From the IMG/VR virus record IMGVR_UViG_3300027503_000009: a stretch of DNA of 64,000 nt. One strand, given 5' to 3'. The notes under the pieces were generated by a model, which had not been told where the DNA came from, ran no database searches, and saw only the letters and a list, made by a program, of their open reading frames with translations. Both the position numbers and the translations under genes were made by a program. Below are positions 23,416 to 50,580 of this stretch, in pieces. Source of the DNA: a virus. Each line of letters opens with the position of its first letter. Position 1 is the first letter of the stretch.

Positions 23416-25041
23416 TCAGAAATAGTTTCTTTCAGCAACAAGTTCCCAAAAATCATTATTTGAATCACCTTCTATGAAGTGAGAATCAAAATCATTTGCC
23501 CCAAAAAAACCTGTTGGGAGTAAATCCCTATCCATAACTTCTTCTGTTTCTTTAATTAATTCCAATCGAATACTATTGTCAGTATATTCGGAGAAATTTT
23601 TCTGTGCAGATAACCAACCAAATAAAACCAAACACATAGCCAAATCATCATTGTAACCTTCTTCCGCACCATACTTCCCATCTGGATGTAGAACGAAAGT
23701 GGAAAGCTCACTAATTAAATCAAAATCATTTAAAACAATTTTTCCACCTTCAACTAATGTTTTCATATTAGAACAACCTAATCTTTTTGTTGTTCTAGTT
23801 GTTCTAATACCTCTTCTAAATTTATCAGAAGAAAATCCTGTGGTTAAAATTTGATCGTTGGTATTATTTACAGATAAAATATTTTCATAATTTAAATCAT
23901 GAAATAAAATGTCAACAATTTGTCCACCAACGTCATTAATTTCAACTAATACCTGTGCTTCATTATATTTTTTTGCTGCTGTATTAATAATGGCTGGATA
24001 TGCCATTGGTACAATATCATTTCTTTTAAATGTAGCAACAACTCTGTATGGAATTTGAGACACATTTAAAATAATGAATGCTGAATAATTTTTACCAACA
24101 CCTCTAGCAACATCAACCATCATGAAATATTTTTGATTTTTTTGTGGTTCTTCAAATATTTTAAAGCCATCTTTTGTATGTAAAGCGTCAGTAAATCTTA
24201 ATGACCTTAATGTTTCTGCTTTAATTAGTGTATCTGCTGAACCAAGAAACTCATTTCCATATTCTTGTCTGAATCCAGATTCGGTTAAAGTGGAAATCAT
24301 TTGTTCTTTCCACTTTTCATCTCTACCTGGAACATCTGACCAATGAACTTCTATTGGGAAGAATTCATTTCTTTTTTCTGTTGCGTCTTTGTAAATTCTA
24401 TAAAATAAATTAAGTCCTCTTGGTGTAGAAGAAATAATAACTTTTGAAGATGTACCAGAAGAAACTACAGGGAAAGTAGATGTGAAAAATTCATCAGCAC
24501 CTTCAACGAATGCAAATTCATCAAGATATAGAAGATTACACATGAATCCACGAATTGATGAAGATGAAGTAGAAGAAGCAATAATTCTAGAATTGTTTCC
24601 TAATTCAATTGAACCTTTATTAAATGTAGTAGCTCCAGGTTGTAAGAAAAATGGAATTGTTTTATATGCTGTAACAATTTTAGAAAGAATTTCTCTTGCA
24701 ACAGCACCTTTGTTTGCTAGAATTGCTACTGTTTTATCAGCATTAAAGAATACATACCATAAAATATATGATGAAATAGTGATAGTTTTGCCAGATTGTC
24801 TACCTGACAAAATTACACTATGCCTATTGTTATGAACAGATTCTACAATATTTTTTTGATAAGTTCTTAAATTTAATGGAACAAGACCTTTATCAATTGT
24901 ATTAACTTGAATATATTTCTCAATAAAATAAATTGGATCTTGAGAACAACGAATATATTCTTGAACCTGTTCTTGACTGTAATTTTCAACAATACCAGCA
25001 GCTTTAACTGCTGGATCTTTATAATATGGTGTATTATTCAT
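23416..25041 (-). CDS. gp17: Terminase large subunit
   Basis: RQSGKT, LYLDEFAFV, SSTP.G.N.FY, DVARG, DDLAM. Confidence 0.96.
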   Translation of the reverse strand: MNNTPYYKDPAVKAAGIVENYSQEQVQEYIRCSQDPIYFIEKYIQVNTIDKGLVPLNLRTYQKNIVESVHNNRHSVILSGRQSGKTITISSYILWYVFFNADKTVAILANKGAVAREILSKIVTAYKTIPFFLQPGATTFNKGSIELGNNSRIIASSTSSSSIRGFMCNLLYLDEFAFVEGADEFFTSTFPVVSSGTSSKVIISSTPRGLNLFYRIYKDATEKRNEFFPIEVHWSDVPGRDEKWKEQMISTLTESGFRQEYGNEFLGSADTLIKAETLRSLRFTDALHTKDGFKIFEEPQKNQKYFMMVDVARGVGKNYSAFIILNVSQIPYRVVATFKRNDIVPMAYPAIINTAAKKYNEAQVLVEINDVGGQIVDILFHDLNYENILSVNNTNDQILTTGFSSDKFRRGIRTTRTTKRLGCSNMKTLVEGGKIVLNDFDLISELSTFVLHPDGKYGAEEGYNDDLAMCLVLFGWLSAQKNFSEYTDNSIRLELIKETEEVMDRDLLPTGFFGANDFDSHFIEGDSNNDFWELVAERNYF

Positions 25042-25047
25042 TCAAAA

Positions 25048-25698
25048 TTAAATATAACGTCTAAAGACTAATGTAAATTCCTGAGCTGTTGATTGATTTA
25101 ATGCTGTGCCGCCAGAATTAACTGAAACTAATTTTAAGAATCTAACACCAGATAATGCACCAAATGGTAAATTAACATAAGATGAAGCAGTTACTGGATA
25201 AGATAATTTTGCATTAGCTTCATTATATACTGTATAATAATTATCTGCTTGTGCAGTGGAAGTTACAGTAATTGTTACTGCTGTATTATAATCACCAGTT
25301 GCGGTGTTTGATACAGAAATAGTTCCTGAAACCATTTCAACTAACATTCTACCAGTTCCATTTGATGTTGTTGCATTTAAAACATTTGCTACAGCACCAC
25401 TAGAAAATGTAATTTGTGATTGTTTTAATCCATATTGTGATGCAAAAATAATATCATTTGGATTTGATTGTGATGCAGTATATGTAAATTCAACAAGATA
25501 AGTTGAAATATTTGCATCCACACCACCTTGAAAACCAATACCATAGTTAGTTCCATTTGTATTTGTTGACCATGTTGAAGGTACAATAATACCAACTAAA
25601 CTACCTAAAGCATCTGGTTCTACAGCACCAGAAACAGAACTTCCTGATGCAATTGTTACTTTTCTGGTTACTAGACCATCATAAACGTTTCTTGACAT
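25048..25698 (-). CDS. Putative virion structural protein (Ser/Thr-rich, beta-rich)
   Basis: Composition; AGGAG SD; AATAAATA late-promoter variant upstream. Confidence 0.6.
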   Translation of the reverse strand: MSRNVYDGLVTRKVTIASGSSVSGAVEPDALGSLVGIIVPSTWSTNTNGTNYGIGFQGGVDANISTYLVEFTYTASQSNPNDIIFASQYGLKQSQITFSSGAVANVLNATTSNGTGRMLVEMVSGTISVSNTATGDYNTAVTITVTSTAQADNYYTVYNEANAKLSYPVTASSYVNLPFGALSGVRFLKLVSVNSGGTALNQSTAQEFTLVFRRYI

Positions 25699-26068: not shown

Positions 26069-29000
26069 TTATTTATCAATTGCGAAGTCATGAACAAAAT
26101 CCAAACCAAAATGTTCATTTAGAAAACGCATCATTTTTTCCATATCTATCTTTAATCGTTTTCCAGTTCTTGTATCTACAGAATCATAAATCCATTCATT
26201 AGTTTCTCTGTCGTGTGGTGAAATTAGTGTTGCGTTTCCAGAAGCATCCATAACATAACATTCACCACTAGAAGAGTATATTGAAATTCCATTTGATAAT
26301 GTTCCGGCAGGTGCAGTTCCATTAAATATATCTAGATGATTTGTTCCTGTTGTAGTTGCACGTTGATGGGTTCCGCCTATTTTAACATTTCCTGAATCAT
26401 CTATACGCATTCTTTCTGTTGCAGCAGTATATAATTCAACAGTTCCACCAGTACCTTGAAGTTGACCCATACGCAAAGAAGTGTTATTTCTTATGCTAAA
26501 TATTCTACCAACATCAGCAGTACTTACGTCTATATAAAGACCAACAGTTGCATCGTCTGGATTATTAAATACTATTTCTCCACCTTCACCACCAGTTGCC
26601 AATTGTGTGGTGACTCCTTTCACATTAAGAGTTGTTGCTAGGGTTGTTGTTCCAATACCGACATTCCCAGAAGAACTGATTCTCATTCTTTCAGTAAGAG
26701 TATTTGCTGTTGAACCAGTACTTCCTGCTGATGCTGTTTGGAAAATTAACACTCCACTTCCACCAGTACCAGTACCATTACCAGCAGCAATAGTTAAGTT
26801 AGAACCAGCAGCATCTGTTCCTGTTCTAGCTGGACCTCTTAAAGTAGCTGCTGTAGTTGTAGCACTAGCTTCGCCAGAACCAAGAATAATATCTCCTGTT
26901 GAATTAATACGCATTCTTTCGAAAGGAGAACTATTTGCTTTTGTATAAAACAATAATTCTCCACCAGAGAGTGTTCCAGTACTGTTTTGTATAGCAGTTA
27001 TTCCAGCAACATTGTAGTGTGCATCGTTTTGACCAAGACTTCTACTAAAAAATATTCCACCCAAAACTGCACCAGATGTATTTACGCCACTCACTAAATT
27101 TAAGAAAGATTGTGTAGCATCATATATTTGTATTGTTTTTGCAGTAGTTAAAATACCTGTATAAGATGTTGTACCATTAATATAATTCGTTCCACCACCT
27201 AGATCTAAGATAGTTGCAGGAGCCGATGTTCCAATACCAACATTTCCAGCAGAACTAATGCGGAATCTTTCAGTAAGAGTATTTGCTGTTGAACCGCTAC
27301 TTCCGGCAGGTGCAGTTTGAAAAACAAGTGCGCCACTTCCACCAGTACCAGTACCATTACCAGCAGCAATAGTTAAGTTAGAACCAGTTAAATTGGTTCC
27401 TGTCATGTTTGGTCCTCGAACTAAGTTCGAACTTGCTGATCCGCCACCTTCACCAAAACCTAAAATAATATTACCATTTAGATCAATTCTCATTCTTTCA
27501 GTTAAAGAAGATCCGTTACTAGTATAAAATGATAATGTCCTTGTTATAGCAGGATTTCCTATAGCTGATCCAGATGCAGCAATAGTTCCAGATCCTGAAT
27601 TATTAAATCCTATTCCAGCCGATCCACTAGCTATCAAATCTCTAGAAGCTCTCCAGCGAGGATTGACTTCAGTTGAGAAATATTCTTCAATTTGTGCACC
27701 AGAAACTAATTGTATTCTAGTATTATTAAAAGTTCCGGCAACAATAGTACCATTAACTTCTAATTTTACTCCTGGTGAAACTGTACCAATACCAACACGA
27801 TCATTTGTTTGATCTACATATAATGTATTTGTATCTACTGTTAAAGCAGCAGCAGTTAATCTAGTTCCATCAAATGTTAAATTTGCTGATCCAGCAGTTG
27901 TTCCGGATGAATTATATAGAACTTGTGTATTAGAACCACCAATTGGTCCGGTGGCACCTGTAAATCCTGTTGCACCTTGTAATCCAGTTGCTCCAATGAA
28001 ACCTGTGGCACCTTGTAATCCAGAACCAGTTGCACCAATGAAACCTGTGGCACCAATGAAACCAGTTGCACCAATAAATCCGGTAGCTCCAGTGAATCCA
28101 GTTGCACCTTGTAATCCAGAACCAGTTGCACCAATGAAACCTGTGGCACCAATGAAACCAGTTGCACCTTGTAATCCAGAACCAGTTGCACCAATGAAAC
28201 CTGTGGCACCAATGAAACCAGTTGCACCAATGAAACCTGTGGCACCTTGTAATCCAGAACCAGTTGCACCAATAAATCCGGTAGCTCCAGTGAATCCAGT
28301 TGCACCAATGAATCCGGTAGCTCCAGTGAAACCTGTGGCACCTTGTAATCCAGAACCAGTTGCACCAATGAAACCTGTGGCACCAATGAATCCGGTAGCT
28401 CCAGTGAAACCTGTGGCACCAATGAATCCTGTGGCACCTGTGAATCCAGTAGCACCAATGAATCCTGTCGCACCTGTTAATCCAGTAACACCATGTAATC
28501 CTGTGGCACCCGTAAAACCAGTAGCACCTGTGAATCCAGTAGCACCAATTATTGTTGAACTTGGTGTTCCCGCAGAATTAATATCAAATAATTTCCAATT
28601 TCCACTATCAAAAATTAAAACAATAACATCATTATCTACAATATAAGTATTATCAATAATAATAAATGATGAACTTTCAACTAAATCTGAACCAGATGCT
28701 AATATTTTAAATCCAGTTCCTGTAGAATAATCAACAGCGATATATATCGCTGCACTAGTATACCCAGAAGGTAATGTGACTACAAGATTAGTTGGTGTAT
28801 TATTACCATAAACAATATATCTTTTATTATATTGTGCTGTAAATGAAGTTGTTTGTTTTACCCAGTTAAAATATTCAGAACCCAACGCTGCTGTTGTTTG
28901 TATTGTATTGTCTGAAAATTTAATTCCCTGAGATGAAGTAGTTATAAATCCGCCCGTACAAGTTAATCCTTGTTGAGCAGTTAATAATTTATGTGAAGTT

Positions 29001-29146
29001 AAACCACTAGAATTTGCAGTTGCGATATCTTCAGATGAAATTTCTTCTGTTTCAGCATTAACAATACTTCTAGTTGTTTCTGGTAAAACATCAGGTTCAA
29101 CTTCAGGTAAATTTTCTTCTGGATTTACAATATAAATTTCTGACAT
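26069..29146 (-). CDS. Collagen-like (Gly-Ala-Thr) fibre protein with ERMRI..GNVGIGT tail-fibre repeats
   Basis: ~200 residues of ([12 protein letters not shown])n, then repeated ER.RI...GN.GIG modules. Confidence 0.85.
27945..28550. repeat. 18-bp-unit tandem coding repeat (GATGFx), collagen-like block
   Basis: Repeats of CCAGTTGCACCAATGAAA / CCTGTGGCACCAATGAAA with GSGLQ interruptions. Confidence 0.95.
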
Positions 29147-29153
29147 ATTTAAT

Positions 29154-29161
29154 TATTTATA
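29154..29161 (-). promoter_or_regulatory. T4 late promoter (fibre gene)
   Basis: TATAAATA ending 7 nt before ATG 29146. Confidence 0.75.
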
Positions 29162-30053
29162 ATAAAAAATCAACCCATTTATCAATATGAAATTTCCAAT
29201 CATAATTTTGTCTAGCATATTCTTGAATATCCAAACATTTATTTTTATATTCTTTCGGATTATCAGCATAATAATTCAATAAACTGACAGTTTCTGTTAT
29301 AAAATAATTTGGGTCAATACTAACAACATGACCACCACCAGCAGGACCATTTTTTTCAAAATAACCAACTGGTGTACTAATACATAATTTACCAGCAGCA
29401 GCGGCTTCTAACATAGGAAGTCCCGCACCTTCTTCTGTTGAAGCAGTTATAATACAATCAACGCTTTTATAAAAATTAGGCATTGAAAGATAGTGATAAA
29501 AATTATGTTTCTTAAAAGTTAGTCCAGTATATTTAACAGCTTGCTCAACAAGTGCGCCTCTTTTTATTTCTTGTCCAAAAAAGTTTTGTGTTGAATATGC
29601 TCCAGCCATAGCAACTGTGGATAATTTTTCGGAGGGTTTTGAATAAAATCTATCAAAATGAATTCCAAACGGAACAACATGTGATTTTACTGGAACACCA
29701 AATTCAATAGATTTCTTATCTAATATCTCAGATACAGTTCCATATTTTGCAATTTTATTAAAAATATCTAACCCCATTTGTTGTCTTGCTAATAAAATAT
29801 CCCATTGTCCATGAGCAACTGCAATAATTTTTTGTAATGGTATTTGATAATTTAATAAGAAACCAATACCAACTGGAGTTGTAACAAAATAATCAGTTGA
29901 ATCAGAAATTTTTAACATTTCGTCAATTTGATATTGACGTTCCCAATCTAATACTTCAGCATTAATACCAAATCGGTACAATTCTTTACAAAGTGAATTG
30001 TGAATTGTACCAAATGCCCATTTATTTTCTGTAAAAAATATTATATTTCTCAT
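29157..30053 (-). CDS. Glycosyltransferase, GT-B fold (GT4-like)
   Basis: EGAGLPMLEAAAAG (E-x7-E), ISTPVG, YDW. Confidence 0.85.
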   Translation of the reverse strand: MRNIIFFTENKWAFGTIHNSLCKELYRFGINAEVLDWERQYQIDEMLKISDSTDYFVTTPVGIGFLLNYQIPLQKIIAVAHGQWDILLARQQMGLDIFNKIAKYGTVSEILDKKSIEFGVPVKSHVVPFGIHFDRFYSKPSEKLSTVAMAGAYSTQNFFGQEIKRGALVEQAVKYTGLTFKKHNFYHYLSMPNFYKSVDCIITASTEEGAGLPMLEAAAAGKLCISTPVGYFEKNGPAGGGHVVSIDPNYFITETVSLLNYYADNPKEYKNKCLDIQEYARQNYDWKFHIDKWVDFLL

Positions 30054-30056
30054 AAT

Positions 30057-30803
30057 TTATTTTCCTAATTCATGAAGAAACTTAAACCCTTTTTGTCTTA
30101 AATAATCAGTGTATTCAAACATCTTAGGAACTCCACCTGTACATCCGATAGCAACTTCATCACAACCTAATTCCCAACCTTTTAAACTTCCCCACATTTC
30201 TTTATTACTTTTTGGATGTGGAGGAACATATGTTCCTAAGTCTGTATATTTTTGTAAAACATATGAAAAGTGCATATCTTCACCAACAATAAAATTGTGA
30301 TCTATTGGTGGTAATTCTCTACAAAAAACTGATAATAAATCCCTGTGGAAAAACCAATTATGTCCAACAATATCTACACGTTCTACTTGTTCATTATTAT
30401 TTCCATCCCAACCATAACGATCAGTCATTTGATATTCATAAGAACTATTTGGAAATTTAATTCCAATTGCTCCAAGCAAACCTGGATGTTTTTCGTATGT
30501 ATTTAAACAATTTTCAATCCACTGTGTTCCTGGGATTGTATCATCATCTAATATACAAACATAATTTGTTCTAGCATTTAATGCATAATAAAATCTAGCC
30601 CAAACACCAAAATTAACTGATGCATATGATGATATGCAATAATTGGTTGATGTTTGCATATCATAATGAACATTTGGCATTGAATTTTGCCAATAAAAAA
30701 TATCTTTTACTTTAACTGTTTGTGTTAAAGCTGCATCTACTTGTTTTTTCAAATTTTGAGGTCTTTTATAACCATTCAAAATTACAGTAACATCATTATT
30801 CAT
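30057..30803 (-). CDS. Glycosyltransferase, GT-A fold (GT2-like)
   Basis: VTVILNGYKRP, YVCILDDD (DxD), GED. Confidence 0.8.
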   Translation of the reverse strand: MNNDVTVILNGYKRPQNLKKQVDAALTQTVKVKDIFYWQNSMPNVHYDMQTSTNYCISSYASVNFGVWARFYYALNARTNYVCILDDDTIPGTQWIENCLNTYEKHPGLLGAIGIKFPNSSYEYQMTDRYGWDGNNNEQVERVDIVGHNWFFHRDLLSVFCRELPPIDHNFIVGEDMHFSYVLQKYTDLGTYVPPHPKSNKEMWGSLKGWELGCDEVAIGCTGGVPKMFEYTDYLRQKGFKFLHELGK

Positions 30804-30804
30804 A

Positions 30805-31527
30805 TTATCCCCAATAACAAATCTTTTTATTATCTGAATGATCTAAAATATAGTAACCACGAATATTTAAATCTGATTGTAGCCAAGGATGTAAAGTTGA
30901 ACCTATATCTAAATAAGTATTGTTTTTATTTACTTCCCATAATTGTTGTGCTAATATTTTACCCAAAGGACCACAAGCAAATAAATATAATTTATTTTCT
31001 GTTTTCCAATTTTTTAATTCATCAACTAAATTTATATTTTCAACCCAAGCATTATATTTAACCGGAATAAATGCTTCTCCAGAAAAAGGTAAATTATTTA
31101 CTTTAGATTTTTCATTAGCAACTAATATTATATTTCTTTTTTTGAATAGTTCAATGTAATTGTTTATGAAATATTGATAATTTGAATTCACAAATATATT
31201 AGCATAGGTTAAATTTTCATCACTTTGATCTGATAATTTTTTCATATTATTAAAATTATTATATCCTTGACAACAAGGACAAACTATACCAACATAATAA
31301 TTAGGATCTTTATAGGTGAAAGATTTATGTAATAAATTTCTAGCTAAATCATATCTATCATCAAAACCATTTGTAGACCATTCACCATAACCAGAAGAAA
31401 TACATTCTCCTCTCATAGCAATCATTTCACCATCACCAAATCTAGCTAAAGAAAAATTTTTATTTGACTGTAACATCCATAAAAATTTTTGTATTTCTTC
31501 TTTAAAATTTTTCACAACATACTCCAT
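30805..31527 (-). CDS. GT-D fold (DUF1792-like) glycosyltransferase
   Basis: FSLARFGDGE and LFACGPLGK...LDIGS motifs. Confidence 0.7.
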   Translation of the reverse strand: MEYVVKNFKEEIQKFLWMLQSNKNFSLARFGDGEMIAMRGECISSGYGEWSTNGFDDRYDLARNLLHKSFTYKDPNYYVGIVCPCCQGYNNFNNMKKLSDQSDENLTYANIFVNSNYQYFINNYIELFKKRNIILVANEKSKVNNLPFSGEAFIPVKYNAWVENINLVDELKNWKTENKLYLFACGPLGKILAQQLWEVNKNNTYLDIGSTLHPWLQSDLNIRGYYILDHSDNKKICYWG

Positions 31528-31528
31528 A

Positions 31529-32095
31529 TTATTTTTTAATTATTAAAATACCAACATTTAATCCATCAAACCAAGGTGCACCTGAACCAATAATTCTATT
31601 TTCATAATTTTTATATGATATTTTTTGTCTTAAATAATCTTCAATATTATTTAATTGTAGTCCAGGAATATCAAATGTTATAATAACATATCCATCTTTT
31701 TTAACTTGTTTTATCAGATTAGATAAATGATGTACATGATCACCGGGAATTTCCTCTAGTGCAGAAACATTTAAAATAACATCAAAAGATTCTTTGAAGT
31801 TATCATCTGGTTCTTTTGTTATATCATGTATACAAGTGTTATCTATTCTACTATAAAGAATGTCAGAATTAGTAACATATTCTCGACCAAACTTTTTTTC
31901 TAATTCATTCTTAAATCTCTGATGATGTTCTAAATCAAATCCCCAAGAAGAATTATGAATTTTTGGATTATTTGGTAATTCCAAATTGTTTAAAATATTT
32001 AATAATGTTGGATATTCATACTTTCTAGACCAATGTGGATAAGTATCATCAAAAACATCATTTTTATTTACATATCTAAAATCAATTATTTTCAT
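31529..32095 (-). CDS. Divergent SAM-dependent methyltransferase-like protein
   Basis: WSRKYEYP, FDVILNVSALEEI, VKKDGYVIITFD; canonical GxG motif absent. Confidence 0.55.
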   Translation of the reverse strand: MKIIDFRYVNKNDVFDDTYPHWSRKYEYPTLLNILNNLELPNNPKIHNSSWGFDLEHHQRFKNELEKKFGREYVTNSDILYSRIDNTCIHDITKEPDDNFKESFDVILNVSALEEIPGDHVHHLSNLIKQVKKDGYVIITFDIPGLQLNNIEDYLRQKISYKNYENRIIGSGAPWFDGLNVGILIIKK

Positions 32096-32726
32096 ATAAA
32101 TTTATTTCTGGATAATGTGAACTAATTTTATTAGTTTCTGGTCCATCATAGTATTTTTCAATTGGTTTACCTAAAATACTAACAAACGGATCAGATTCAA
32201 GATATATTGGCCTATATGTTTCTTTAGGAAAATCTAAATCTATATTAACTACTTTTTCAGAAAAAGAAGTTATAAAACTATATTTTGATTTTTCTTTTGT
32301 TAAGGATACACTTTCTGTCGCATACTGTAAAGGAAGATGTTCTAGTGTATGTCTGATTATTATTAAATCAAATTTATAATCTATATTTTTTAAATATGTA
32401 TTCATATCAGAACATATAAATTTTATATTATCTTTAGAATAATTTTTATTATTGTAATCTATAGCTTCTTGTACGCAGTCTAATCCAATATAATTAGGAA
32501 GACTGTCTGAAATAGTTCTCATCCAATTCCAATCTCCACAAGAACAATCTAATATTGTATTGATATTTTTTTCTGAAATAAATTTTAAAAGTATACTTTT
32601 AAAATTGGAAGTCCATTCTAATGTACTACCTAATCCAGATCTAGATTCATTTTGTCCCATATACCAACTAAAATCTTTATATATAGTTGTGAAAGTTTCA
32701 TTTATATTATCAATAAGTTTTTCCAT
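32082..32726 (-). CDS. Class I SAM-dependent methyltransferase
   Basis: SGLGS, ILDCSCGDWNWM, YIGLD, DLIIIRHTLEHL. Confidence 0.8.
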   Translation of the reverse strand: MEKLIDNINETFTTIYKDFSWYMGQNESRSGLGSTLEWTSNFKSILLKFISEKNINTILDCSCGDWNWMRTISDSLPNYIGLDCVQEAIDYNNKNYSKDNIKFICSDMNTYLKNIDYKFDLIIIRHTLEHLPLQYATESVSLTKEKSKYSFITSFSEKVVNIDLDFPKETYRPIYLESDPFVSILGKPIEKYYDGPETNKISSHYPEINLYENN

Positions 32727-32732
32727 AAAAAA

Positions 32733-33905
32733 TTAATTAATCCCTTTTGGATAATATCTATTTAGCCATTCCAAATCAGTTCTTTCTGTATGTCTTTGAT
32801 ACCATCCGTCATTAGTATAAACATCCCAAACCATTTGAAAATATTCTTCATACATTTTTCCAACTCTATCTAAGGTGAAATTATTCATAGCCCAATCATA
32901 ACAATTTTTAGGATTGATTTTATCAATATTTTCAGCAGCCCAACAGAAATGATCAAATGTACGACAACGATAACCAGTTACACCATGTAGATTATTTTCT
33001 GCATGTGAACCCCAATCAGTTGTTATAATCGGACAACCAGCAAATAATGCTTCAATTGAAGCACCACCAAAAGGTTCATTGTACATTGAAGGTAAAAAGA
33101 ATCCTTTTGCTTTAGACAACATTTCTTTTCGTTGTTCTGAATTTAAATAACCAACTTTTTCTATTTGTCCAGGAATTTCTTTATAACCATATTCTTCTAA
33201 AGAACCTTGACCAGCAATTTTTAATTTAAGTCCCAATTTCTGACAAACTTGATATGCAATGTCAATTCCTTTTCCTGGATAAACTCTACCCATGAATAGG
33301 AAATAATCATCTTTTTCTTGTGAAAATGTAAATTCTTCGGGATCAAAATAATTAGGAATTACTGAATGATACCAATCTTCTTGACAATTGGTGACTGAAT
33401 TTGGTCCTCCAACCGCTGATCTTATTGCATAAGATTCAAAAATTCTATACTTAGCAAAATGACCAGTTCCATAACCAATTCCGGGTTCAACAACAATCAT
33501 ATCGGGATGTGCATCACAAACTGGTTTATGTCCTAATCCCCAGAAGGGCAAAATAAAATCTAAAGGTTGTTTGCGTTTTTGAATTTCTCTGATAGTATTA
33601 GTATAAAATGTTCTGTAAGCGTGATCACCCATATCAAACTTAAAGAAGTTCTTACGCCAATCGTAATTACCGTAAGCAATTTCTAGATCTTTATTTGTTG
33701 TAACTGTGACATGTTCATCACAAATTAAATTAGAATCTTCATGACCATAATGAATAATATGATGGCCTCTAGCCTTCATCATTTTTCCAAATTTGAGAAC
33801 CTTCTGCGTATAAGCACAACCCGTGTATTCTGAATTAGTTACAGTATGAGGAAGCCCCAAAATGTGAAATCTGTATTTTTGACTCATTATATTTTCTCCA
33901 TTCAA
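32733..33905 (-). CDS. Glycosyltransferase, GT-B fold (GT4-like); start probably 33887
   Basis: FLFMGRV...KG, EPFGGASIEALFAG.P.ITTDWG. Confidence 0.88.
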   Translation of the reverse strand: MNGENIMSQKYRFHILGLPHTVTNSEYTGCAYTQKVLKFGKMMKARGHHIIHYGHEDSNLICDEHVTVTTNKDLEIAYGNYDWRKNFFKFDMGDHAYRTFYTNTIREIQKRKQPLDFILPFWGLGHKPVCDAHPDMIVVEPGIGYGTGHFAKYRIFESYAIRSAVGGPNSVTNCQEDWYHSVIPNYFDPEEFTFSQEKDDYFLFMGRVYPGKGIDIAYQVCQKLGLKLKIAGQGSLEEYGYKEIPGQIEKVGYLNSEQRKEMLSKAKGFFLPSMYNEPFGGASIEALFAGCPIITTDWGSHAENNLHGVTGYRCRTFDHFCWAAENIDKINPKNCYDWAMNNFTLDRVGKMYEEYFQMVWDVYTNDGWYQRHTERTDLEWLNRYYPKGIN

Positions 33906-33922
33906 CTATTATAAGTTAAACA

Positions 33923-33930
33923 TATTTATA
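33923..33930 (-). promoter_or_regulatory. T4 late promoter heading the glycosyltransferase/methyltransferase operon
   Basis: TATAAATA on minus strand immediately upstream of the first GT gene. Confidence 0.78.
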
Positions 33931-36207
33931 TTACAAATAAGAATAGTATGTTGGTCCGCCCCCGCCTCCACTAGCCAATGAAACATCAAAAGTATTTCCT
34001 GCAACTTGCTCAACAGATACTCCCTTATATGTAGAAGATTCATATGCAAAAACGAAGACTGGAATTGTATTATCATACCAAGTCATTGAATATGATCCAT
34101 TCCCTGTTCTTGAAGTAGATGCTATTTTTTCACCATTATCTGTTCTATAAGCTTCAATATTAACTGTACCACCATTTGATCCTGATATTGTTCCAGATAT
34201 AGTGTATGATATAGTATGATAAGTTAAATTCGTATTCATAAAATTACCAATATTTAATACAAATTTTTGATTATAATAGATTCTATTGTCTTGTCCTAAT
34301 GCAAATCTAGGTTGTCTTATATCTGTTGGGTATTGTTTCCAAAAGTTTGTAGTATTATACCATGAATATATAGTTCCCGCCTCAGCATCTGAGTTATAAT
34401 AATTTATATCTACCAAAGTTCTCAATGCAGTTGAATTTGTACCATCTTGTAAAAGACCAAGAGTAGTTATATAAAATGGAAATTGTGATACAGTAGATCC
34501 AGTAATTGTATATAAGTCTAAGCCACTATTAGTTAAAAAATAATTCGTTTCTGGTATATCTTCACGGACAGTACCAAGAGACGATCCAAATGGAGATACT
34601 GGTGTAAATGTAGAACTTAAAGTACTGGTAGATATTGAGTTACTATAATCTATAGTAGTAAATTTTACTGTATGATTATGAGCACCATCACCATCAGAAT
34701 GTTTCCCGCTAGTGTAATTTAAAAATACTACACCAGTAACTGAGTCTGTACCAACTGACGGTTTAGCTTCAATTATTAATGTATTTAATCCTCTCGATAA
34801 AGTTATACCAGCAGTAGAACCTGTTTCACCAGAATCAATTCTTCTTCCTATAACAAAAGAACCGACTCTATTACCACCACCTGCATGTGTATAAGTTCTA
34901 TCTGCTTGTGAACCGACTGCCATAACTAATGATAAGGCTGCACCATCCATTGTTGACATTAATAAACCAGATTGAACTAATGAAATTGTTGTTGGTTCTT
35001 GAATAAAGAAATCAACTACAAAATTATTTCCAATAAGTCCAGATCGGCCAGATGTCGATTCTGAACTACCAAAAGGAATTTCTAAACTGTTAATTATACT
35101 GGTACTCGATGAATGATCATACTCATATGTTACAACTAAAACACCACACATACAAGGCATAGTGATTGATGTCACGTTACTTACTCTGGCAGTAATAGAA
35201 CTAGTTGCATTTGTTGCTAATATAGATGTAATTTCATCTATTCTCTTAAAAGATCTATCTGTAGATAATGCCATATTATAAGCAAGACTTGCGGCATCAG
35301 TTCCACTAAATGTTAATGTACATGTTGCGTTGGTTGTGTTTCCTGTACCAGTATTGCCCATATGACTATATGATTCAAAAAATATGTTTCTAAAAGTTTT
35401 AGAAGCTTCTGGTAAAAATGTACTTAGATTTGGAACTTGATTTGCGGCACCAATATTTGATGCAGTAGTTGTTAAATTTCCAGTATTACCATCAATTGGT
35501 ATTTTTACTGTTTTAATTCTGGTTGTTGTCGCAACACTATCTTCATATTCATAAGTTATAACAATTTTTGCACTAGTGTTATTTGTAGCTAATCCAGTTA
35601 AATTGATTCTAGCTGTACTAGCCATAGTTGTGGCGTTAGCTGTCCAATTTTGATTAAAATAATTTCTAAAATCACATATAAACGTCCAAGATTGGTGTTC
35701 TCCTGAATTAGTTAGTACACTTGTATTAGAAAAAGTACCAATTGCTATAGCACCCAATGTTAAACCTAAAGTAACATCAGTGACATTTGCGGCGGTGGCG
35801 GCATTATCTACTGAACTAACTTCAAGAAAAGCATTTTTAAATACTATATCATAAATTGTGCAGTTTATATCTGTCGTTGAATTTGTTAATGTAGAAGTCG
35901 CTCCATCAAAAGAAGCACTTACAGTAATAGTTGTAGTTGAAGGAACAGATTTAACCCAATATGTCGTTCCTGATGTTAATCCACCGCCAGTAGATGAAGG
36001 AACTAATCTATTGCCAATTCTCAAACCATGATCTGTCGTGAATGTTATTATATTACCTGTAGCTGATGTTGAATCAATTGTTTTTGACACACCTATATTT
36101 TCAGGAATATACAAATTTATTGACGTGAAATCTCTATTATTTCCTGAAGCGACGGAAGTGTTTGAAAATGGATATGCAAATTCTACTGTTTTTTGTCTTG
36201 TAGCCAT
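33931..36207 (-). CDS. Large Thr/Ser-rich putative virion protein
   Basis: 758 aa, beta-rich, duplicated VVTYEY..S segments; late-gene context. Confidence 0.65.
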   Translation of the reverse strand: MATRQKTVEFAYPFSNTSVASGNNRDFTSINLYIPENIGVSKTIDSTSATGNIITFTTDHGLRIGNRLVPSSTGGGLTSGTTYWVKSVPSTTTITVSASFDGATSTLTNSTTDINCTIYDIVFKNAFLEVSSVDNAATAANVTDVTLGLTLGAIAIGTFSNTSVLTNSGEHQSWTFICDFRNYFNQNWTANATTMASTARINLTGLATNNTSAKIVITYEYEDSVATTTRIKTVKIPIDGNTGNLTTTASNIGAANQVPNLSTFLPEASKTFRNIFFESYSHMGNTGTGNTTNATCTLTFSGTDAASLAYNMALSTDRSFKRIDEITSILATNATSSITARVSNVTSITMPCMCGVLVVTYEYDHSSSTSIINSLEIPFGSSESTSGRSGLIGNNFVVDFFIQEPTTISLVQSGLLMSTMDGAALSLVMAVGSQADRTYTHAGGGNRVGSFVIGRRIDSGETGSTAGITLSRGLNTLIIEAKPSVGTDSVTGVVFLNYTSGKHSDGDGAHNHTVKFTTIDYSNSISTSTLSSTFTPVSPFGSSLGTVREDIPETNYFLTNSGLDLYTITGSTVSQFPFYITTLGLLQDGTNSTALRTLVDINYYNSDAEAGTIYSWYNTTNFWKQYPTDIRQPRFALGQDNRIYYNQKFVLNIGNFMNTNLTYHTISYTISGTISGSNGGTVNIEAYRTDNGEKIASTSRTGNGSYSMTWYDNTIPVFVFAYESSTYKGVSVEQVAGNTFDVSLASGGGGGPTYYSYL

Positions 36208-36209
36208 AA

Positions 36210-36389
36210 TTAACTCGATATATCTCTTCTTTTAACTCTTATTTGAAATAATTCATTTGTTCCATTATAATCAACTATTATTTTCCATTCTTCATCATAT
36301 AAGAAACCTCTCCAAACACAATAACCAGTTCTATCTGCTACTGCCAAATCTATACATTCTGCTATTTTATTTGCTAATGGTGAACTCAT
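36210..36389 (-). CDS. 59-aa hypothetical protein (not in ORF track)
   Basis: MSSPLANKIAECIDLAVADRTGYCVWRGFLYDEEWKIIVDYNG...; fills the gap between neighbours with 2-3 nt spacing. Confidence 0.7.
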   Translation of the reverse strand: MSSPLANKIAECIDLAVADRTGYCVWRGFLYDEEWKIIVDYNGTNELFQIRVKRRDISS

Positions 36390-36392
36390 ATA

Positions 36393-39300
36393 TTACTCCG
36401 AAATTAAAAATGCGTTCCAATCTGCTGCACCATTTACAGATGTGATATCTATTCTTAATAGATCTCCAGCAGTTAAACCTGAATTCGTAAATGAAGTAGT
36501 TGTTACTACGTTATTACCAGTAGTTAAAGTTATAGTAACAACAGTTGTTGGGAAAGTTGAACCATTATTCGATGATTTTAGAATTGATACTACAAAAGAC
36601 CCGCCTGTAGGAGCAGTTTTTGCTGTCAGTATTGCATTAGTTGCTGTTGAAGTGTATGGAACATACAAATATGGTGTAACGCTATTTGCAATAGTTGGTG
36701 TTCCACTTCCACCAAAAGTGAAAGTGGATTTAGTTAATCCTGTAGCTCCAGTGAAACCAGTTGCTCCAGTGAATCCAGTGGCCCCAATAAATCCAGTAGC
36801 ACCAATGAAACCTGTAGCTCCAGTAAATCCAGTAGAGCCTATGAATCCTGTGTCACCTTGTAATCCAGTTGCACCTATAAATCCAGTAGCACCAATGAAA
36901 CCTGTAGCACCAATAAATCCAGTAGCACCAATGAAACCAGTTGCTCCTTGTAAACCAGAACCCGTCGCACCTATAAATCCAGTGGCACCAATGAAACCAG
37001 TTGCTCCAGTAAATCCAGTAGAGCCTATGAATCCTGTGTCACCTTGTAATCCAGTTGCACCTATAAATCCAGTAGCACCAATGAAACCTGTAGCTCCAGT
37101 AAATCCAGTAGAACCAATGAAACCAGTTGCTCCTTGTAAACCAGAACCCGTCGCACCTATAAATCCAGTAGCACCAATGAATCCAGTTGAACCTGTAAAT
37201 CCTGTCGCACCTGTGAATCCAGTTGCACCTATAAATCCAGTAGCACCTATAAATCCAGTAGCACCAATAAAACCTGTAGATCCTTGTAATCCAGTTGCAC
37301 CAATGAAACCAGTTGCTCCAGTAAATCCTGTGGCTCCAATGAATCCTGTAGATCCAATGAATCCAGTTGCACCTATAAATCCAGTAGCACCTATGAATCC
37401 AGTAGCACCTATAAATCCAGTAGCACCAATAAAACCTGTAGAGCCTATGAATCCAGTAGCACCAATAAAACCTGTAGATCCTTGTAATCCAGTTGCACCA
37501 ATGAAACCAGTTGCACCTATAAATCCAGTAGCACCAATGAATCCTGTGTCACCTTGTAATCCAGTTGCACCTATAAATCCAGTAGCACCAATAAAACCTG
37601 TAGATCCGTGTAATCCTGTAGCACCAATAAAACCTGTAGCACCAATGAATCCTGTGGCTCCTGTGAACCCTGTTGATCCTATAAATCCTGTGGCTCCTAT
37701 GAAACCAGTTGATCCTATAAATCCTGTAGCTCCAATTAATCCAGTTGCACCAGTCAATCCAGTTGCACCTTGGAATCCAGTTACTGCTGAAATTACAGAT
37801 AAGAATAATTCATGATTATCTGTAAAATTCGAAGAACCACCGCTTGCAATTAATGTTACTGTAAAATCATAATATGCCGTAGAAGTTCCTATATTATTTC
37901 CAGTAACAGCAGTGATTTCCCAAGTTTGATAATTTTCGCTTACATTGCGATCTTGAATAATAAATCTTTGAGTCGATTTTAATAGACCCAAAATAATTTC
38001 AATATCTGTTAAATCGCTAGTTAAATGTGAAATATATATGTGTGTTGAACTAGTTTGGGTAGAGTTATTCCAAACAATAAATCCATCACCAGGATATGCA
38101 TTTGATTGAGTACTCGTCTCAGCAAGATAATAAAATAAACTTGTACTTTGTCCAGCGGGGCCAGTAAGACCAGTAGCACCTATGAAACCTGTAGATCCTT
38201 GTAAACCAGAACCTGTAGCACCAGTAAGTCCTGTCACCCCTGTAGCACCAGTGAAACCTGTGGCTCCAGCGAAACCTGTAGCACCAGTAAGTCCTGTCAC
38301 CCCTGTGGCTCCAGTGAAACCTGTGGCTCCAGTGAAACCTGTGGCTCCAGTGAAACCTGTGGCTCCAGTAAGACCAGTTAAACCAGTAGAACCGATAAAT
38401 CCAGTTGAACCAGTTAAACCAGTAGAACCGATAAATCCAGTTGAACCAGTTAAACCAGTAGCACCAATGAAACCTGTAGCGCCAATGAAACCAGTTGCAC
38501 CTATAAATCCAGTTAAACCAGTAGCACCAATTAAACCTGTAGCGCCAATAAAACCAGTTGCACCTATAAATCCAGTAGATCCAGTTAAACCAGTAGAACC
38601 GATAAATCCAGTTAAACCAGTTGAACCTTGGAAACCTGTAGATCCCTGTAATCCAGTAGATCCAGTTAAACCAGTAGAACCGATAAATCCAGTTAAACCA
38701 GTTGAACCTTGGAAACCTGTAGATCCCTGTAATCCAGTAGATCCAGTAAATCCTATACCTGTAGCACCAATAAATCCTACACCAGTAGCACCTTGATAGC
38801 CAGTAACACCTTGTAGTCCTGTTGCACCAGTAAATCCAGTAATACCTTGTGGTCCTGTTGCACCAGTAAATCCAGTAGCTCCATCCGAACCAACATAACC
38901 TGGAGTTCCAGTAGCACCTTGATACCCAATAACACCTTGTGGTCCTGTTGCACCAGTGAATCCAGTAGCACCAATTGGACCTGTATCACCAATATCACCA
39001 GTTCTTGCAAATGATATTACTATTTCAGTATTTCCAGATAAATTATCCATTGATCCAGAAATATATGATGATGGGACGTTAAAATAACTATCACCATGAG
39101 TATGCGTTCCTGTTATAGCAAATAATGCATAACTAGCAGGATTGACCTTTTCTGATATTGTAAAATGGCCTTTAATTAATGATGTTGAATCATCAATTGA
39201 TTGTAGGAAATTATAAACCGAAACAGAATTAGCATCTGTTTGGTTAATATACATTTCAGTAACTGAAAAGAAGTTTAAATTATTAAATCTTAATTTCCCT

Positions 39301-39725
39301 GATCCTGGATTACCAATGATAGTAAAATCATCGTAAATGTAATCAAAAGATGCACCACCAAAAGATCCTGCTGGTCCTTGCGCTCCTGTCGCTCCAATTA
39401 ATCCAGTTGCACCAGTAAATCCAGTAGCCCCCTGAAATCCAGTTGCACCATCTGAACCAACATAACCTGGAGTTCCAGTAGCACCAGTAAATCCAGTAAC
39501 ACCTTGTGGTCCTGTTGCACCAGTGAATCCAATACCTGTTGCACCTATGAAACCTGTAGCACCCTGATAAGGATTATTTATTTGAATAACATTATTGTTA
39601 TGATCTTTAGTGTAAAGAATTCTATCATTTAAATTTAAAGCTAATTCACCAATTTCTAATTGTAAATTAGTTGGTATTTTTCCAGGTTCAATACTTCTTT
39701 TTATTTTTATGATGTTTGATGGCAT
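36393..39725 (-). CDS. Collagen-like (Gly-Ala-Thr/Gly-Ser-Thr) fibre protein, 1110 aa
   Basis: N-terminal IKIKRS...P...L..GELALN..D..LY fibre-attachment-like domain; three GXY blocks separated by globular domains. Confidence 0.85.
36735..37780. repeat. Collagen-like coding tandem repeat block
   Basis: ([18 protein letters not shown])n, 18-bp periodicity. Confidence 0.95.
38160..38995. repeat. Collagen-like coding tandem repeat block
   Basis: ([18 protein letters not shown])n. Confidence 0.93.
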
Positions 39726-39748
39726 TTAGAAATCTCTTACAGAAAAGA

Positions 39749-39756
39749 TATTTATA
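39749..39756 (-). promoter_or_regulatory. T4 late promoter (collagen-like fibre gene)
   Basis: TATAAATA on minus strand. Confidence 0.75.
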
Positions 39757-39765
39757 TATTATTTA

Positions 39766-39951
39766 TTACTTTTCTATATCAGATATTTTTTTACCAGTTA
39801 CAAAAGTTGCTAATGCTGTAGAAAATGTTCTAAAAACGTCATTTCCCTCTGGGACTTTACAAAACATCATTATAATACCTAGTAAAGTAAAAAATGAAAA
39901 TATAAAAATAATTGAACCTGATAAAGATAAAGTTTCCAATCTTCTTCCCAT
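39766..39951 (-). CDS. Small membrane protein
   Basis: Hydrophobic helix; coupled to the gp15 stop. Confidence 0.55.
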   Translation of the reverse strand: MGRRLETLSLSGSIIFIFSFFTLLGIIMMFCKVPEGNDVFRTFSTALATFVTGKKISDIEK

Positions 39952-40934
39952 TAATAAGAACCCCCATCTATAACTAAATTATTTAATTCATTTGAAGATA
40001 TCCATTTTTGTGTTGATAAATTATAAATTAAAACTGATCCATCATATAAATTTACAGTATCAACATCAAACAAATCATCTAATTTTAGATAAGTAACAAC
40101 GCCTCCACCACCTCCACCCGAAGGACTAGTAGCACCACTTTCTGATGGTGGATTAGTTATAATTGTTGATGAATTATAATCATCAACAATAAATGTTTCT
40201 ATTAATGTGTAATTATCATTTACACCAGCATTTGAGGGATTAACCTCAACACTATAATATTGTTTACCACCAGCACCTTCAACTGTGGTATCTACAATTG
40301 TATTTACAATTGCTTTTTTAATAATCTTACTATCTTTTACTGGTGGATATAAATTTGATTCAACGGTAAATTTTAAATCCCAAATTAAAACTCTTCTATC
40401 CTCTACAGTTCCTTCATAATTATCTTGAGGATTTACGCTTTTTAATATAATAGGAATATCTTTTGAGATACCCATTGTATTATCTTCAATAATAGATATT
40501 GTGAATTGTGGTGTAAAATAAGGAACAATTTGTTCTAATATCATTAAACCATCATCCATATTTTTTGACATGATCCAAAGATCAAATGAAAAATCATATG
40601 GAACTGGATTATATTGAGATATTATATTATCTCTATTATCTGAACTTTTAAAGTTTTGATTTACAGTAGGTAATTTTCTACCTGATGCATATTGTAAACC
40701 AGATAGTTCAAATCCCATTCTAGGAAGTGAAATTTCTGTTTGTCTGTTAGCTTCAGCATCTTGTTCTAATCTCGTTAACCATTTTTGTTTTGGTCCATAA
40801 GATAAAGGTACACGAATATCTTTAACTAAACTTCCAGAATTATCTTTTCTCTGGACGTGTAAGTTATTAAATAAAGTTCCAAAAACTGAAACTAAACGTT
40901 TAATGTGTTCGTTATACCAAGTTTGTCCTAACAT
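39951..40934 (-). CDS. gp15: Tail sheath stabilizer/terminator with C-terminal extension
   Basis: FGTLFNN, VPLSYGPKQK, LPRMGFE, QIVPYFTP. Confidence 0.93.
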   Translation of the reverse strand: MLGQTWYNEHIKRLVSVFGTLFNNLHVQRKDNSGSLVKDIRVPLSYGPKQKWLTRLEQDAEANRQTEISLPRMGFELSGLQYASGRKLPTVNQNFKSSDNRDNIISQYNPVPYDFSFDLWIMSKNMDDGLMILEQIVPYFTPQFTISIIEDNTMGISKDIPIILKSVNPQDNYEGTVEDRRVLIWDLKFTVESNLYPPVKDSKIIKKAIVNTIVDTTVEGAGGKQYYSVEVNPSNAGVNDNYTLIETFIVDDYNSSTIITNPPSESGATSPSGGGGGGVVTYLKLDDLFDVDTVNLYDGSVLIYNLSTQKWISSNELNNLVIDGGSY

Positions 40935-41620
40935 TAGTTCTCTCTATTGAATTCACCAAATGGATTTTTTTCTGAGAAATCCAATATTGTAGTAGACTTT
41001 TCTTCTAACTTCTCATTATCTGAGAAGTTTGGTTGATCTATTTGCAGTTCTTTTTCCAACTTCTCATTAATATTATCAATTTCAGGAATTCCAGTTTCAA
41101 TCGTTTCGTCGGTAAATCTGTAAAGTTCGCAAGAAAGTTTCCAAACATACAAATCTCCCAATTGATATGTATTGCTGTATTCTTGATTTACATACATAAC
41201 TTCCCAAAGTTTTCTAGTCAAATAAGGAATAAAAATTAAGTCGCCTTCTTCTGGACGCTTAAGTCTATCATCAAATTGAACTCTTCTTATTCCTGTTTGG
41301 AAGTTTCTGTTATATTCTTCATCAAAGCGTTTCTTGGAAACTAATAGTGTAAAAGTTTGTTTAATATCTAAACCGAATTTAGAAATTAAGTTATCATTAC
41401 TAGTAAAATCTTCTGTACTTTCCATGTACATTTCAATAGGAAACTTATTCTTATATTCAAGTAAAACATCTTCTCCAAAAATTTCATCTTTTTTAACAAA
41501 AGTTTTTGGGATATAATAACAATCAATACCATGCATTGCTATACATTCAGTTAGCAAATTGTCTAATAATTTCTGTTCACTTTTATTTCTAAATTCATTG
41601 AAATATCTATTTGTAGGCAT
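40934..41620 (-). CDS. gp14: Neck protein
   Basis: EQ.L...L..E.I...G...YY.P, FGED, SKFG, RPEEGDLI. Confidence 0.92.
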   Translation of the reverse strand: MPTNRYFNEFRNKSEQKLLDNLLTECIAMHGIDCYYIPKTFVKKDEIFGEDVLLEYKNKFPIEMYMESTEDFTSNDNLISKFGLDIKQTFTLLVSKKRFDEEYNRNFQTGIRRVQFDDRLKRPEEGDLIFIPYLTRKLWEVMYVNQEYSNTYQLGDLYVWKLSCELYRFTDETIETGIPEIDNINEKLEKELQIDQPNFSDNEKLEEKSTTILDFSEKNPFGEFNREN

Positions 41621-41623
41621 TTT

Positions 41624-43026: not shown

Positions 43027-43027
43027 T

Positions 43028-43805: not shown

Positions 43806-43815
43806 ATTTTATTCC

Positions 43816-45006: not shown

Positions 45007-45008
45007 TT

Positions 45009-45200
45009 TTATTTCTCGATTTTACTTAAAATTAATTCCAACATACTTTTTATTTCAACCATTTCTCTCTCTAATTTATTTATTCTTTCTTTTTCTTGTT
45101 TCTGTTTATTAAATTTATCTAAAGCGGTTCTGTCTGTTGAAAGAACCGCTTTAGAGTTTATATCACGAATTAGAGTAGAATTTTCTATTTGTATATTCAT
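45009..45200 (-). CDS. Small conserved coiled-coil protein
   Basis: L.RD..SKAV...D...; LE.E..EIK.ML..IL. Confidence 0.7.
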   Translation of the reverse strand: MNIQIENSTLIRDINSKAVLSTDRTALDKFNKQKQEKERINKLEREMVEIKSMLELILSKIEK

Positions 45201-50554: not shown

Positions 50555-50580
50555 AGTTATTTAATACCTAAGTATATTTA

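Follow-up and report, generated by a model that had tools for sequence, protein, structure and literature searches.

Glycosylation of virions and glycosylation of collagens are both already known, and together they form the background to the locus described here, an island in which two collagen-like fibre genes enclose six enzyme genes for glycan synthesis. The island lies in a stretch of 64,000 nucleotides of IMG/VR virus record IMGVR_UViG_3300027503_000009 (the window), which has ~30% G+C and belongs to an uncultured marine T4-like myophage. The collagen-like region of Bacillus anthracis BclA, a GPT-rich spore-surface protein, reportedly carries O-linked oligosaccharides including a methylated sugar on its G-X-T region, a finding credited to Daubenspeck et al. 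2004. Its glycan is said to depend on rhamnose and anthrose pathways, both of which are absent from the window. In the cuticle collagen of Riftia, glycosylated threonine at the Y position of the triplet is said, after Mann et al. 1996, to stabilise the triple helix in place of hydroxyproline. As an extracellular animal protein modified in the secretory pathway, Riftia collagen serves as a mechanistic analogy only.

Among phages, virion glycosylation has been shown experimentally for mycobacteriophages Che8 and Rita by Freeman et al. 2023, as reported in PMC11256854, where the target named is the capsid protein. The system proposed here would resemble theirs in that soluble glycosyltransferases (GTs) encoded by the phage act, within the host cytoplasm, on proteins of its own virion. 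However, Che8 and Rita are siphophages of Actinobacteria with a capsid target, whereas the proposed target in our marine T4-like myophage is a pair of collagen-like fibres, the enzyme set (GT4a, GT4b, GT2 and GT-D with methyltransferases; Table 1) is unlike theirs, and the system is a genomic prediction. In the giant viruses, Mimivirus L230 hydroxylates lysine and then glucosylates the hydroxylysine (PMC9614988), and the likeness extends to virus-encoded collagen-like proteins, a glycosylating enzyme (proposed here), soluble transferases and sugar methyltransferases. Unlike L230, the chemistry here would be direct threonine O-glycosylation, because proline and lysine are almost lacking in the collagen tracts and the island has no 2-oxoglutarate (2OG) oxygenase.

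The streptococcal serine-rich repeat protein (SRRP) adhesin system (GtfA/B, Gtf3, dGT1; PDB 5v4a) O-glycosylates, in the cytoplasm, a repetitive protein rich in Ser and Thr and, like the island, joins a GT-D enzyme with a DXE motif to GT4- and GT2-type partners. The streptococcal SRRP/accessory Sec system itself was rejected as an identification: no GtfA/GtfB or Asp/SecA2/SecY2 match was found among the six enzymes in NCBIfam or Pfam, and GT-D reaches 31 bits against TIGR03728, for which the cut-off is 291. Similar in setting are other marine T4-like phages, in which a hypervariable host-recognition cluster mixes GTs with tail-fibre genes, some of them with collagen repeats, and has been read as a device for modifying the host O-chain (PMC7029224). 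A preliminary description of our island had considered such an arrangement uncharacterised in a T4-like myophage. That does not hold for the mixture of fibre and GT genes as such, although its published reading is a different one, and our literature search found no paper describing virion or collagen glycosylation for T4-like phage fibres. Unlike the published cluster, the island sits at the gp15/gp16 junction, and the comparative data point to collagen as the acceptor. What is new here is the rule that joins GT4a to Thr-type collagen, replicated in bacteria, together with a caveat about the promoter.

We favour, by a modest lean rather than with assurance, the reading that the phage glycosylates its own fibres through cytoplasmic O-glycosylation of Thr in G-X-T triplets. 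Observed directly in the window and its relatives are the gene content, the folds and families, the catalytic motifs, the absence of membrane segments, the position in the structural module and the linkage of GT4a to G-X-T collagen. For the acceptor, the reaction order, the sugars and the benefit we propose the following. The gp15–gp17 island would be a fibre module equipped with a cassette for O-glycosylating its proteins in the cytoplasm, in which GT4a adds the first sugar to the Y-position Thr of G-A-T, G-S-T and G-F-T triplets in both near-proline-free fibres. GT4b, GT2 and GT-D would extend the chain and unk188 and MT214 would O-methylate sugars, giving a short methylated oligosaccharide. 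Host nucleotide sugars would act as donors, because no gene for sugar activation is encoded in the window. The glycan would probably serve to stabilise and shield a triple helix without hydroxyproline. Fibre glycosylation had been put forward in the preliminary description, and in part it stands: the strong link between GT4a and Gly-X-Thr collagen, in phages and in bacteria, speaks for it, while the exclusively late expression that went with it finds no support in that form.

The Thr-rich collagen-like fibres that the preliminary description placed around the GT and methyltransferase genes are confirmed as open reading frames (ORFs) and by family. By their long unbroken Gly-X-Y tracts, which match PF01391, fib1 and fib2 are collagen-repeat proteins with a predicted triple helix. 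In fib1, 221 triplets stand in runs of at least eight, with Thr at 62% of Y positions and GAT (70) and GFI (46) as the commonest triplets, followed by GST and GFT; fib2 has 60 triplets in such runs (Thr at Y 63%). An anchor-type N-terminal segment opens fib1, followed by three collagen tracts with globular inserts between them, and fib2 has its collagen tract at about residues 200-400, followed by repeated beta modules of NVGIGT type. Both fibres are present as described, but the enzymes are not simply bracketed by them, since a 758-aa gene that had been omitted (str758) lies between fib1 and the enzymes.

The closest relative of the window, contig L099 (labels of this kind are our own), is 77-93% identical in amino acid sequence in neck and baseplate genes. 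After gp15 it carries two fibres without collagen that share the fib1 N-terminus MPxxN[VI]IK[IV]KR (L099:11019-16464), and in one of them a segment matches fib2 residues 403-459 at 86% identity; the contig ends within a fibre. Parts of fib1 and fib2 thus occur in fibres that lack collagen, and the collagen tracts therefore act as exchangeable spacers in these fibres.

All six enzyme assignments made at the outset (GT4, methyltransferase, methyltransferase-like, GT-D, GT2 and GT4) hold. The six genes follow one another at spacings between a 14-nt overlap and a 10-nt gap. GT4a probably starts at the ATG at 33887, behind a GGAG, and not at the TTG at 33905. On domain and motif grounds, namely a Glycos_transf_1 C-terminal domain with E-x7-E, GT4a and GT4b are retaining GT-B enzymes of GT4 type, and E271 and E279 of the GT4a motif are invariant in 12 diverse homologues. 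GT4b often adjoins GT4a directly. GT-D, by its PF08759 match and N-terminal DXE motif, is a member of the GT-D/DUF1792 family, and its metal-binding D32-G33-E34 is invariant in 18 sequences; it has 206 metagenomic homologues and scores 25.1 bits against PF22882, under the cut-off of that family. Its sequence match to the solved dGT1 domain (5v4a) is weak (E=0.56), and PDB sequence searches with GT-D and GT2 returned chance-level matches only. GT2 and GT-D form a recurrent pair on many viral contigs.

The two methyltransferase-type proteins differ in how they connect to GT4a. The "methyltransferase-like" label of unk188 holds because the top Foldseek matches of its model, folded together with three relatives (pLDDT 75, pTM 0.80), are all class I S-adenosylmethionine (SAM) methyltransferases, and the gene is the conserved direct follower of GT4a in the closest relatives. 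Elsewhere GT4a is itself C-terminally fused to Methyltransf_23, to FkbM or to both, and these fusions in other lineages lend support to the methylated sugar of the preliminary description. BLAST found no homology between MT214 and the methyltransferase domains fused to GT4a elsewhere, so the link between GT4a and methyltransferases is one of domain class, and of unk188 in close relatives.

The evidence that GT4a may act on collagen comes principally from its neighbourhood. Collagen ORFs occur in 20 of 80 viral loci centred on GT4a vs 2 of 80 centred on gp15 (Fisher 4e-5, uncorrected for relatedness). The adjacency recurs in ~15 different phage gene contexts. Three of these belong to cultured cyanophage lineages: in ACG-2014f a collagen is accompanied by a GT, a 2OG oxygenase and a tail fibre, S-CAM7 combines two collagens with GT4a, GT4b, a 2OG oxygenase and a tail fibre, and in S-CBWM1 the GT adjoins a "tail fiber protein" of collagen type. 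Each of the 36 collagen ORFs from loci with GT4a has Thr or Ser at the Y position of 40-76% of its triplets (median 62%). Where large GT4a-bearing contigs have no collagen nearby, several collagens are encoded elsewhere on the contig (5/5). Cultured relatives that lack GT4a also lack any collagen in four of five cases, the fifth being DSL-LC02.

In DSL-LC02, a cultured freshwater Synechococcus phage (L193, record 40969-56566), three tail-fibre genes of collagen type face genes for a beta-mannosyltransferase and two FkbM methyltransferases, one of them 718 aa long, and another tail fibre follows. The arrangement looks like a second, non-orthologous cassette of fibre plus glycan. In the cyanophage versions from ACG-2014f and S-CAM7 (L001, L088), a 2OG-Fe(II) oxygenase stands beside GT4a/GT4b and the nearby collagens contain Pro (X 19-21%, Y 9-11%); unlike these, the window has neither the oxygenase nor collagen Pro. 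This hints at hydroxylation together with glycosylation in the cyanophage lineage, vs glycosylation alone in that of the window.

The same pairing is found outside phages. Bacterial assemblies hold GT4a homologues of 45-59% identity, and a collagen ORF is directly adjacent to the homologue in seven of 31 full-length bacterial loci from three phyla (three Chitinophaga isolates and assemblies of Bradyrhizobium, Hyphomicrobium, Beijerinckiaceae and Planctomycetota). Every one of the seven adjacent collagens is of G-X-T type, with Thr at 41-93% of Y positions, and GAT is the top or joint-top triplet in five. In Chitinophaga (L318, L326, L328) the GT4a homologue and G-X-T collagen-like ORFs are followed by two unannotated proteins of ~1000-1160 aa, and in Hyphomicrobium (L315) an autotransporter precedes the collagen; these loci suggest cell-surface glyco-collagens in bacteria. 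A Bradyrhizobium contig, from a metagenome-assembled genome (MAG), carries a 1637-aa pyruvyl transferase-GT7-GT2-GT1 fusion between a GAT/GAS collagen and a GT4a homologue (L300:3029-7939). At 9.4 kb this is a short contig, and it could be viral DNA binned with the Bradyrhizobium MAG.

The two halves of GT4a are unequally conserved. Between phage lineages the protein is 63-84% identical, while the gp15 and gp17 of these lineages are only 40-50% identical to those of the window, and mean pairwise identity is 76.8% in the N-terminal acceptor half vs 66.2% in the donor half. The better-kept acceptor half therefore fits a conserved, phage-encoded acceptor and not a hypervariable host O-antigen.

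This bears on the published view of such genes in the host-recognition cluster of pelagimyophages and cyanomyophages (PMC7029224; PMC12801897), by which the soluble enzymes would act on lipid-linked O-antigen, core or capsule intermediates of the host at the cytoplasmic face of its membrane. The surface would be changed during infection, for example to block superinfection, and adjacency to fibres would reflect only the hypervariable host-recognition region. Cassettes of relatives that contain polysaccharide-type genes (UDP-GlcNAc 2-epimerase, GDP-mannose dehydratase, NTP-transferases, a carbamoyltransferase), cassettes found without nearby collagen, and the early-type sigma70 promoters that precede GT4a in relatives are all in keeping with it. 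Against this, the acceptor half of GT4a is highly conserved across lineages as different as Synechococcus phages and the present phage of 30% GC, vs the great variation of host O-antigens, the pairing with G-X-T collagen in phages and bacteria goes unexplained, and there is no flippase, polymerase, ligase, Gtr-type or polyprenyl-phosphate transferase. No transmembrane segment was found in any of the six window enzymes (Kyte-Doolittle, 19-residue window, threshold 1.6), and the cassettes of relatives show two borderline hydrophobic stretches only and are otherwise soluble. We regard host envelope remodelling as unlikely.

Two specific forms of envelope modification were rejected. O-antigen modification of Gtr type (GtrA/GtrB/GtrX), which relies on a membrane-embedded flippase, a bactoprenol glucosyltransferase and a serotype-specific transferase, does not agree with the lack of a hydrophobic segment in all six enzymes. 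Nor does a cluster of Wzx/Wzy or ABC type fit, in that the island and the cassettes of eight relatives contain no initiating polyprenyl-phosphate transferase, export or polymerisation gene, although host components could serve.

The solved relatives of GT4a suggest a different kind of acceptor. The closest are of glucosylsucrose synthase type (7fg9, 8x3q), together with tetrahydrobiopterin glucosyltransferases (PMC9909042), and the product of GT4a and its partners might accordingly be a methylated glycoside built on a metabolite, for example a pteridine, a compatible solute or a sugar of sucrose type. We consider this very improbable, as the sequence matches to these structures span only the donor-binding C-terminal half (query residues 148-367) and small-molecule synthesis gives no reason for a linkage to collagen or for four different transferases.

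The glycan might instead be placed on another virion protein, as in Che8, with str758 and other Ser/Thr-rich products among the candidates. The 758-aa protein, 27% Ser+Thr, is all-beta and multi-domain, and its 384 homologues are all unannotated. Its AlphaFold2 (AF2) model (pLDDT 78) is a chain of beta-sandwich and jelly-roll domains, of which VIA-align resolved only the C-terminal one, an Ig/CnaB-like domain of pilin/adhesin type (Z 9.7, root-mean-square deviation 2.3 over 84 residues). With the whole model, Foldseek gave only multi-domain jelly-roll and beta-sandwich matches at low TM-scores (~0.1), and a search of the ESM Atlas gave no result. A collagen-str758-collagen arrangement is found in L272 and L274, and elsewhere homologues adjoin giant fibre genes. 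The protein is probably a fibre-associated structural or adhesin protein.

Modification of str758, of small Ser/Thr-rich proteins (the product of 25048-25698, 24.5%; that of 42370-43026, 26.6%) or of capsid or tail proteins would agree with the experimentally shown phage case, where the reported target is the capsid protein (PMC11256854), and with relatives that have the cassette but no collagen in their flanks. Yet in no other locus do str758 homologues stand beside GT4a, and the recurrent neighbour of GT4a is Thr-type collagen. We judge other virion acceptors to be unlikely too, marginally more so than host envelope remodelling.

The position of the island in the structural module and not among nucleotide-metabolism genes speaks against a role in DNA modification. 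It is established that phage GT-B enzymes can build di- and trisaccharides on 5-hydroxy- or 5-hydroxymethyl-cytosine, one such enzyme structurally resembling 7fg9 (PMC13326640), so the transferases could in principle build a glycan on a modified base of phage DNA. Comparison with PHROGs, however, gave no thymidylate-synthase-like base-modifying enzyme, nucleotide kinase or dCTPase in the 20 larger ORFs outside the island, and no thymidylate-synthase-like 5-hydroxymethyl- or 5-hydroxy-pyrimidine synthase, nucleotide kinase or dCTPase in 30 window ORFs outside the cassette. The methyltransferase fusions and the collagen linkage would also go unexplained, and we hold DNA hypermodification to be the most improbable of these alternatives.

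Several observations weigh against glycosylation of the fibres, which here is a genomic prediction and whose key enzyme, GT4a, has its best solved relatives among enzymes acting on small molecules. The linkage counts take the loci as they stand, uncorrected for shared ancestry. Only 12 of 78 GT-D loci have a collagen gene at a distance of 10 kb or less, and in seven relatives (L012, L015-L017, L039, L200, L201) the cassette occupies the same slot while the 10-kb flanks show no collagen; in five whole contigs searched (17-25 kb), there was no collagen match in three and a sub-threshold one in a fourth. A Y position rich in Thr or Gln is general in aquatic phage collagens, which disposes of the strong claim that Thr at Y is a mark unique to GT4a-linked collagens. 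Finally, a near-consensus sigma70-type promoter in the closest clade suggests early, moron-like expression of the enzymes.

Independence of the collagen genes from the GT cluster in related phages, named at the outset as a finding that would count against the idea, is seen in part: there are cassettes without flanking collagen and giant collagens without GT4, the latter of Gln type. In G012 (161 kb, 96% complete) giant collagens flank a str758 homologue, and neither GT4a nor any Glycos_transf_1 domain was found genome-wide; their Y positions hold Gln at 78-82% and Thr at 6-14%, and one GT2 and one FkbM protein are encoded far from them. G013, a 38-kb fragment with no GT4 match, is similar (Gln at Y 66%, Thr 18-23%).

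More tentatively than the fibre reading itself, and with slightly less than even confidence, we advance a wider proposal. The GT4a family would be a dedicated collagen-threonine O-glycosyltransferase common to aquatic phages and several bacterial phyla; glycosylated (and methylated) Y-position Thr would replace hydroxyproline, and Thr-type collagens, but not Gln-type ones, would depend on the enzyme. If the fibre reading is right, many marine and freshwater T4-like phages, cultured cyanophages included, carry glycosylated collagen fibres, and views of phage adsorption, stability, grazing losses and antigenicity would change. A large class of "lipopolysaccharide (LPS)-type auxiliary metabolic genes" would move from host manipulation to virion maturation. 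There would also be a specific conserved enzyme family and a rule of Thr-type vs Gln-type triplets that can be tested in cultured systems, and a simple enzymatic route to stabilise recombinant collagens free of proline.

The timing of expression is a further point on which the preliminary description needs correction. The island lies inside the late structural module, and TATAAATA stands before both fib1 and GT4a, which supports fibre glycosylation. As had been described, the enzyme block has a late-promoter motif of its own, at 33923-33930 on the coding strand and 35 nt before the likely GT4a ATG. Expression at late times only is nevertheless an unsafe conclusion, because the motif lies within a sigma70-like promoter that is near-consensus in relatives. 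In the closest clade TTGACA/TTGACC/TTGACT-17-TATAAT, with 11-12 of 12 consensus matches, lies 16 nt before the GT4a ATG, and S-CAM7 has TTGAAA-16-TATAAT before GT4a. Since relatives hold a near-consensus promoter there, the ancestral enzyme block looks like an early-type, self-standing transcription unit. Upstream of GT4a in L009, L012, L013 and L016 the promoter is near-consensus, and in the window the -35 element is weakened (TTGTAA) with a perfect T4 late motif in the spacer. The promoter class has apparently changed between these relatives and the window, where the copy may have moved towards late expression; late expression of the block is plausible in this phage but is not a conserved property.

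The motif as a whole is at chance level in the window, with 16 found vs 13.5 expected, although its placement is not: it lies no more than 60 nt upstream of 10 of 60 genes, ranking first of 56 permutations of the same composition (mean 2.0). Another copy of TATAAATA, at 29154, runs across the GT4b stop codon, with only 7 nt between its end and the fib2 ATG.

Table 1. Positions in the window of the island genes, promoter elements and bordering genes.
Feature	Position	Strand	Assignment or remark
gp15 tail sheath stabiliser	39951..40934	-	upstream border of island
TATAAATA late-promoter motif before fib1	39749..39756	-	ends 23 nt before fib1 ATG
fib1, 1110-aa collagen-like fibre	36393..39725	-	Pfam Collagen (PF01391) E=1.2e-92, 9 stretches
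str758, 758 aa	33931..36207	-	no Pfam or PHROG match
Promoter region of enzyme block	33908..33936	-	sigma70-like TTGTAA-17-TATAAT with TATAAATA (33923-33930) in spacer
GT4a, retaining GT-B (GT4-type)	32733..33887	-	PF00534 3.6e-18, 66.1 bits (cut-off 26.4); phrog_3408 1.6e-161
MT214, class I SAM-dependent methyltransferase	32082..32726	-	PF13649 1.8e-08; phrog_3382 1.8e-27
unk188, 188-aa methyltransferase-fold protein, divergent SAM-binding motif	31529..32095	-	AF2 model and Foldseek
GT-D (DUF1792-type) glycosyltransferase	30805..31527	-	PF08759 30.2 bits (cut-off 27)
GT2 (GT-A) glycosyltransferase, DDD motif	30057..30803	-	PF00535
GT4b, second GT-B glycosyltransferase	29157..30053	-	PF13692 35.5 bits; phrog_18799
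fib2, 1025-aa fibre	26069..29146	-	Pfam Collagen E=2.6e-22
ORF between gp17 and fib2, 109 aa	25725-26054		phrog_7802
ORF between gp17 and fib2, 216 aa	25048-25698		Ser/Thr-rich, 24.5%
gp17 large terminase	23416..25041	-	downstream border of island

GT4a has 158 relatives in IMG/VR. In the clade of the window, GT4a opens the block immediately behind gp13-gp14-gp15, GT-D/GT2/GT4b close it ahead of gp16-gp17, and the number of genes ranges from 6 to ~13. Additional genes in relatives encode a RuBisCO-like protein, NTP-transferases, a beta-phosphoglucomutase/NTP-transferase fusion, UDP-GlcNAc 2-epimerase, methyltransferases of FkbM and CmcI type and further GT2 enzymes. On viral contigs GT-D is mostly found within the GT2-(epimerase)-GT-D core of large glycan islands.

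The RuBisCO-like protein (396 aa in L015:11632-12819; also in L016, L017, L018 and L236) lies inside glycan cassettes beside a methyltransferase and an NTP-transferase. Its best matches are type III RuBisCO and enolase/decarboxylase RuBisCO-like proteins, all far below cut-offs, and it may perform an unusual sugar-building step. A different context is seen in L065:167-1489 (also L058 and L070), where the genes directly ahead of a GT4a-methyltransferase fusion encode a large terminase and an Fe-S assembly protein, and those behind it an FkbM methyltransferase and a sugar epimerase; this is a complete 128-kb viral genome, with its collagens tens of kb off.

Nearly all of the window is T4 core structural module on the minus strand, where the island genes run in the order fib1, str758, GT4a, MT214, unk188, GT-D, GT2, GT4b, fib2. 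Baseplate genes occupy 43-62 kb and gp13, gp14 and gp15 occupy 39.9-42.4 kb; beyond the island lie gp17, gp18, portal, scaffold and major head protein. The gp17 large terminase has its best identity, 49.7%, to Pelagibacter phage HTVC008M. In 80 other T4-like viral contigs found via gp15 the order is gp15-gp16-gp17, with extra ORFs before gp16 in a few and between gp16 and gp17 in more, and none of the 80 has a collagen gene or a cassette homologue in the gp15/gp16 slot. The 14-kb block is thus a clade-specific island at that junction. Loci for gp15 and GT-D were collected with alignment-based queries; single-sequence queries gave one and none.

An HMM (hidden Markov model) built from 68 gp16 of related contigs found no T4-type small terminase gp16 in any frame of the window. 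The canonical gp16 slot is filled by the island and the 216-aa and 109-aa ORFs, and relatives L006, L194 and L199 keep gp16 directly before gp17. Record G001 begins inside gp17, does not contain the island and so is uninformative about it. The 225-nt gap between gp15 and fib1 contains overlapping small ORFs on both strands, at 39719-39970 (+) and 39766-39951 (-). The plus-strand ORF (84 aa) is 70% identical to a likewise placed ORF between the L099 fibre genes.

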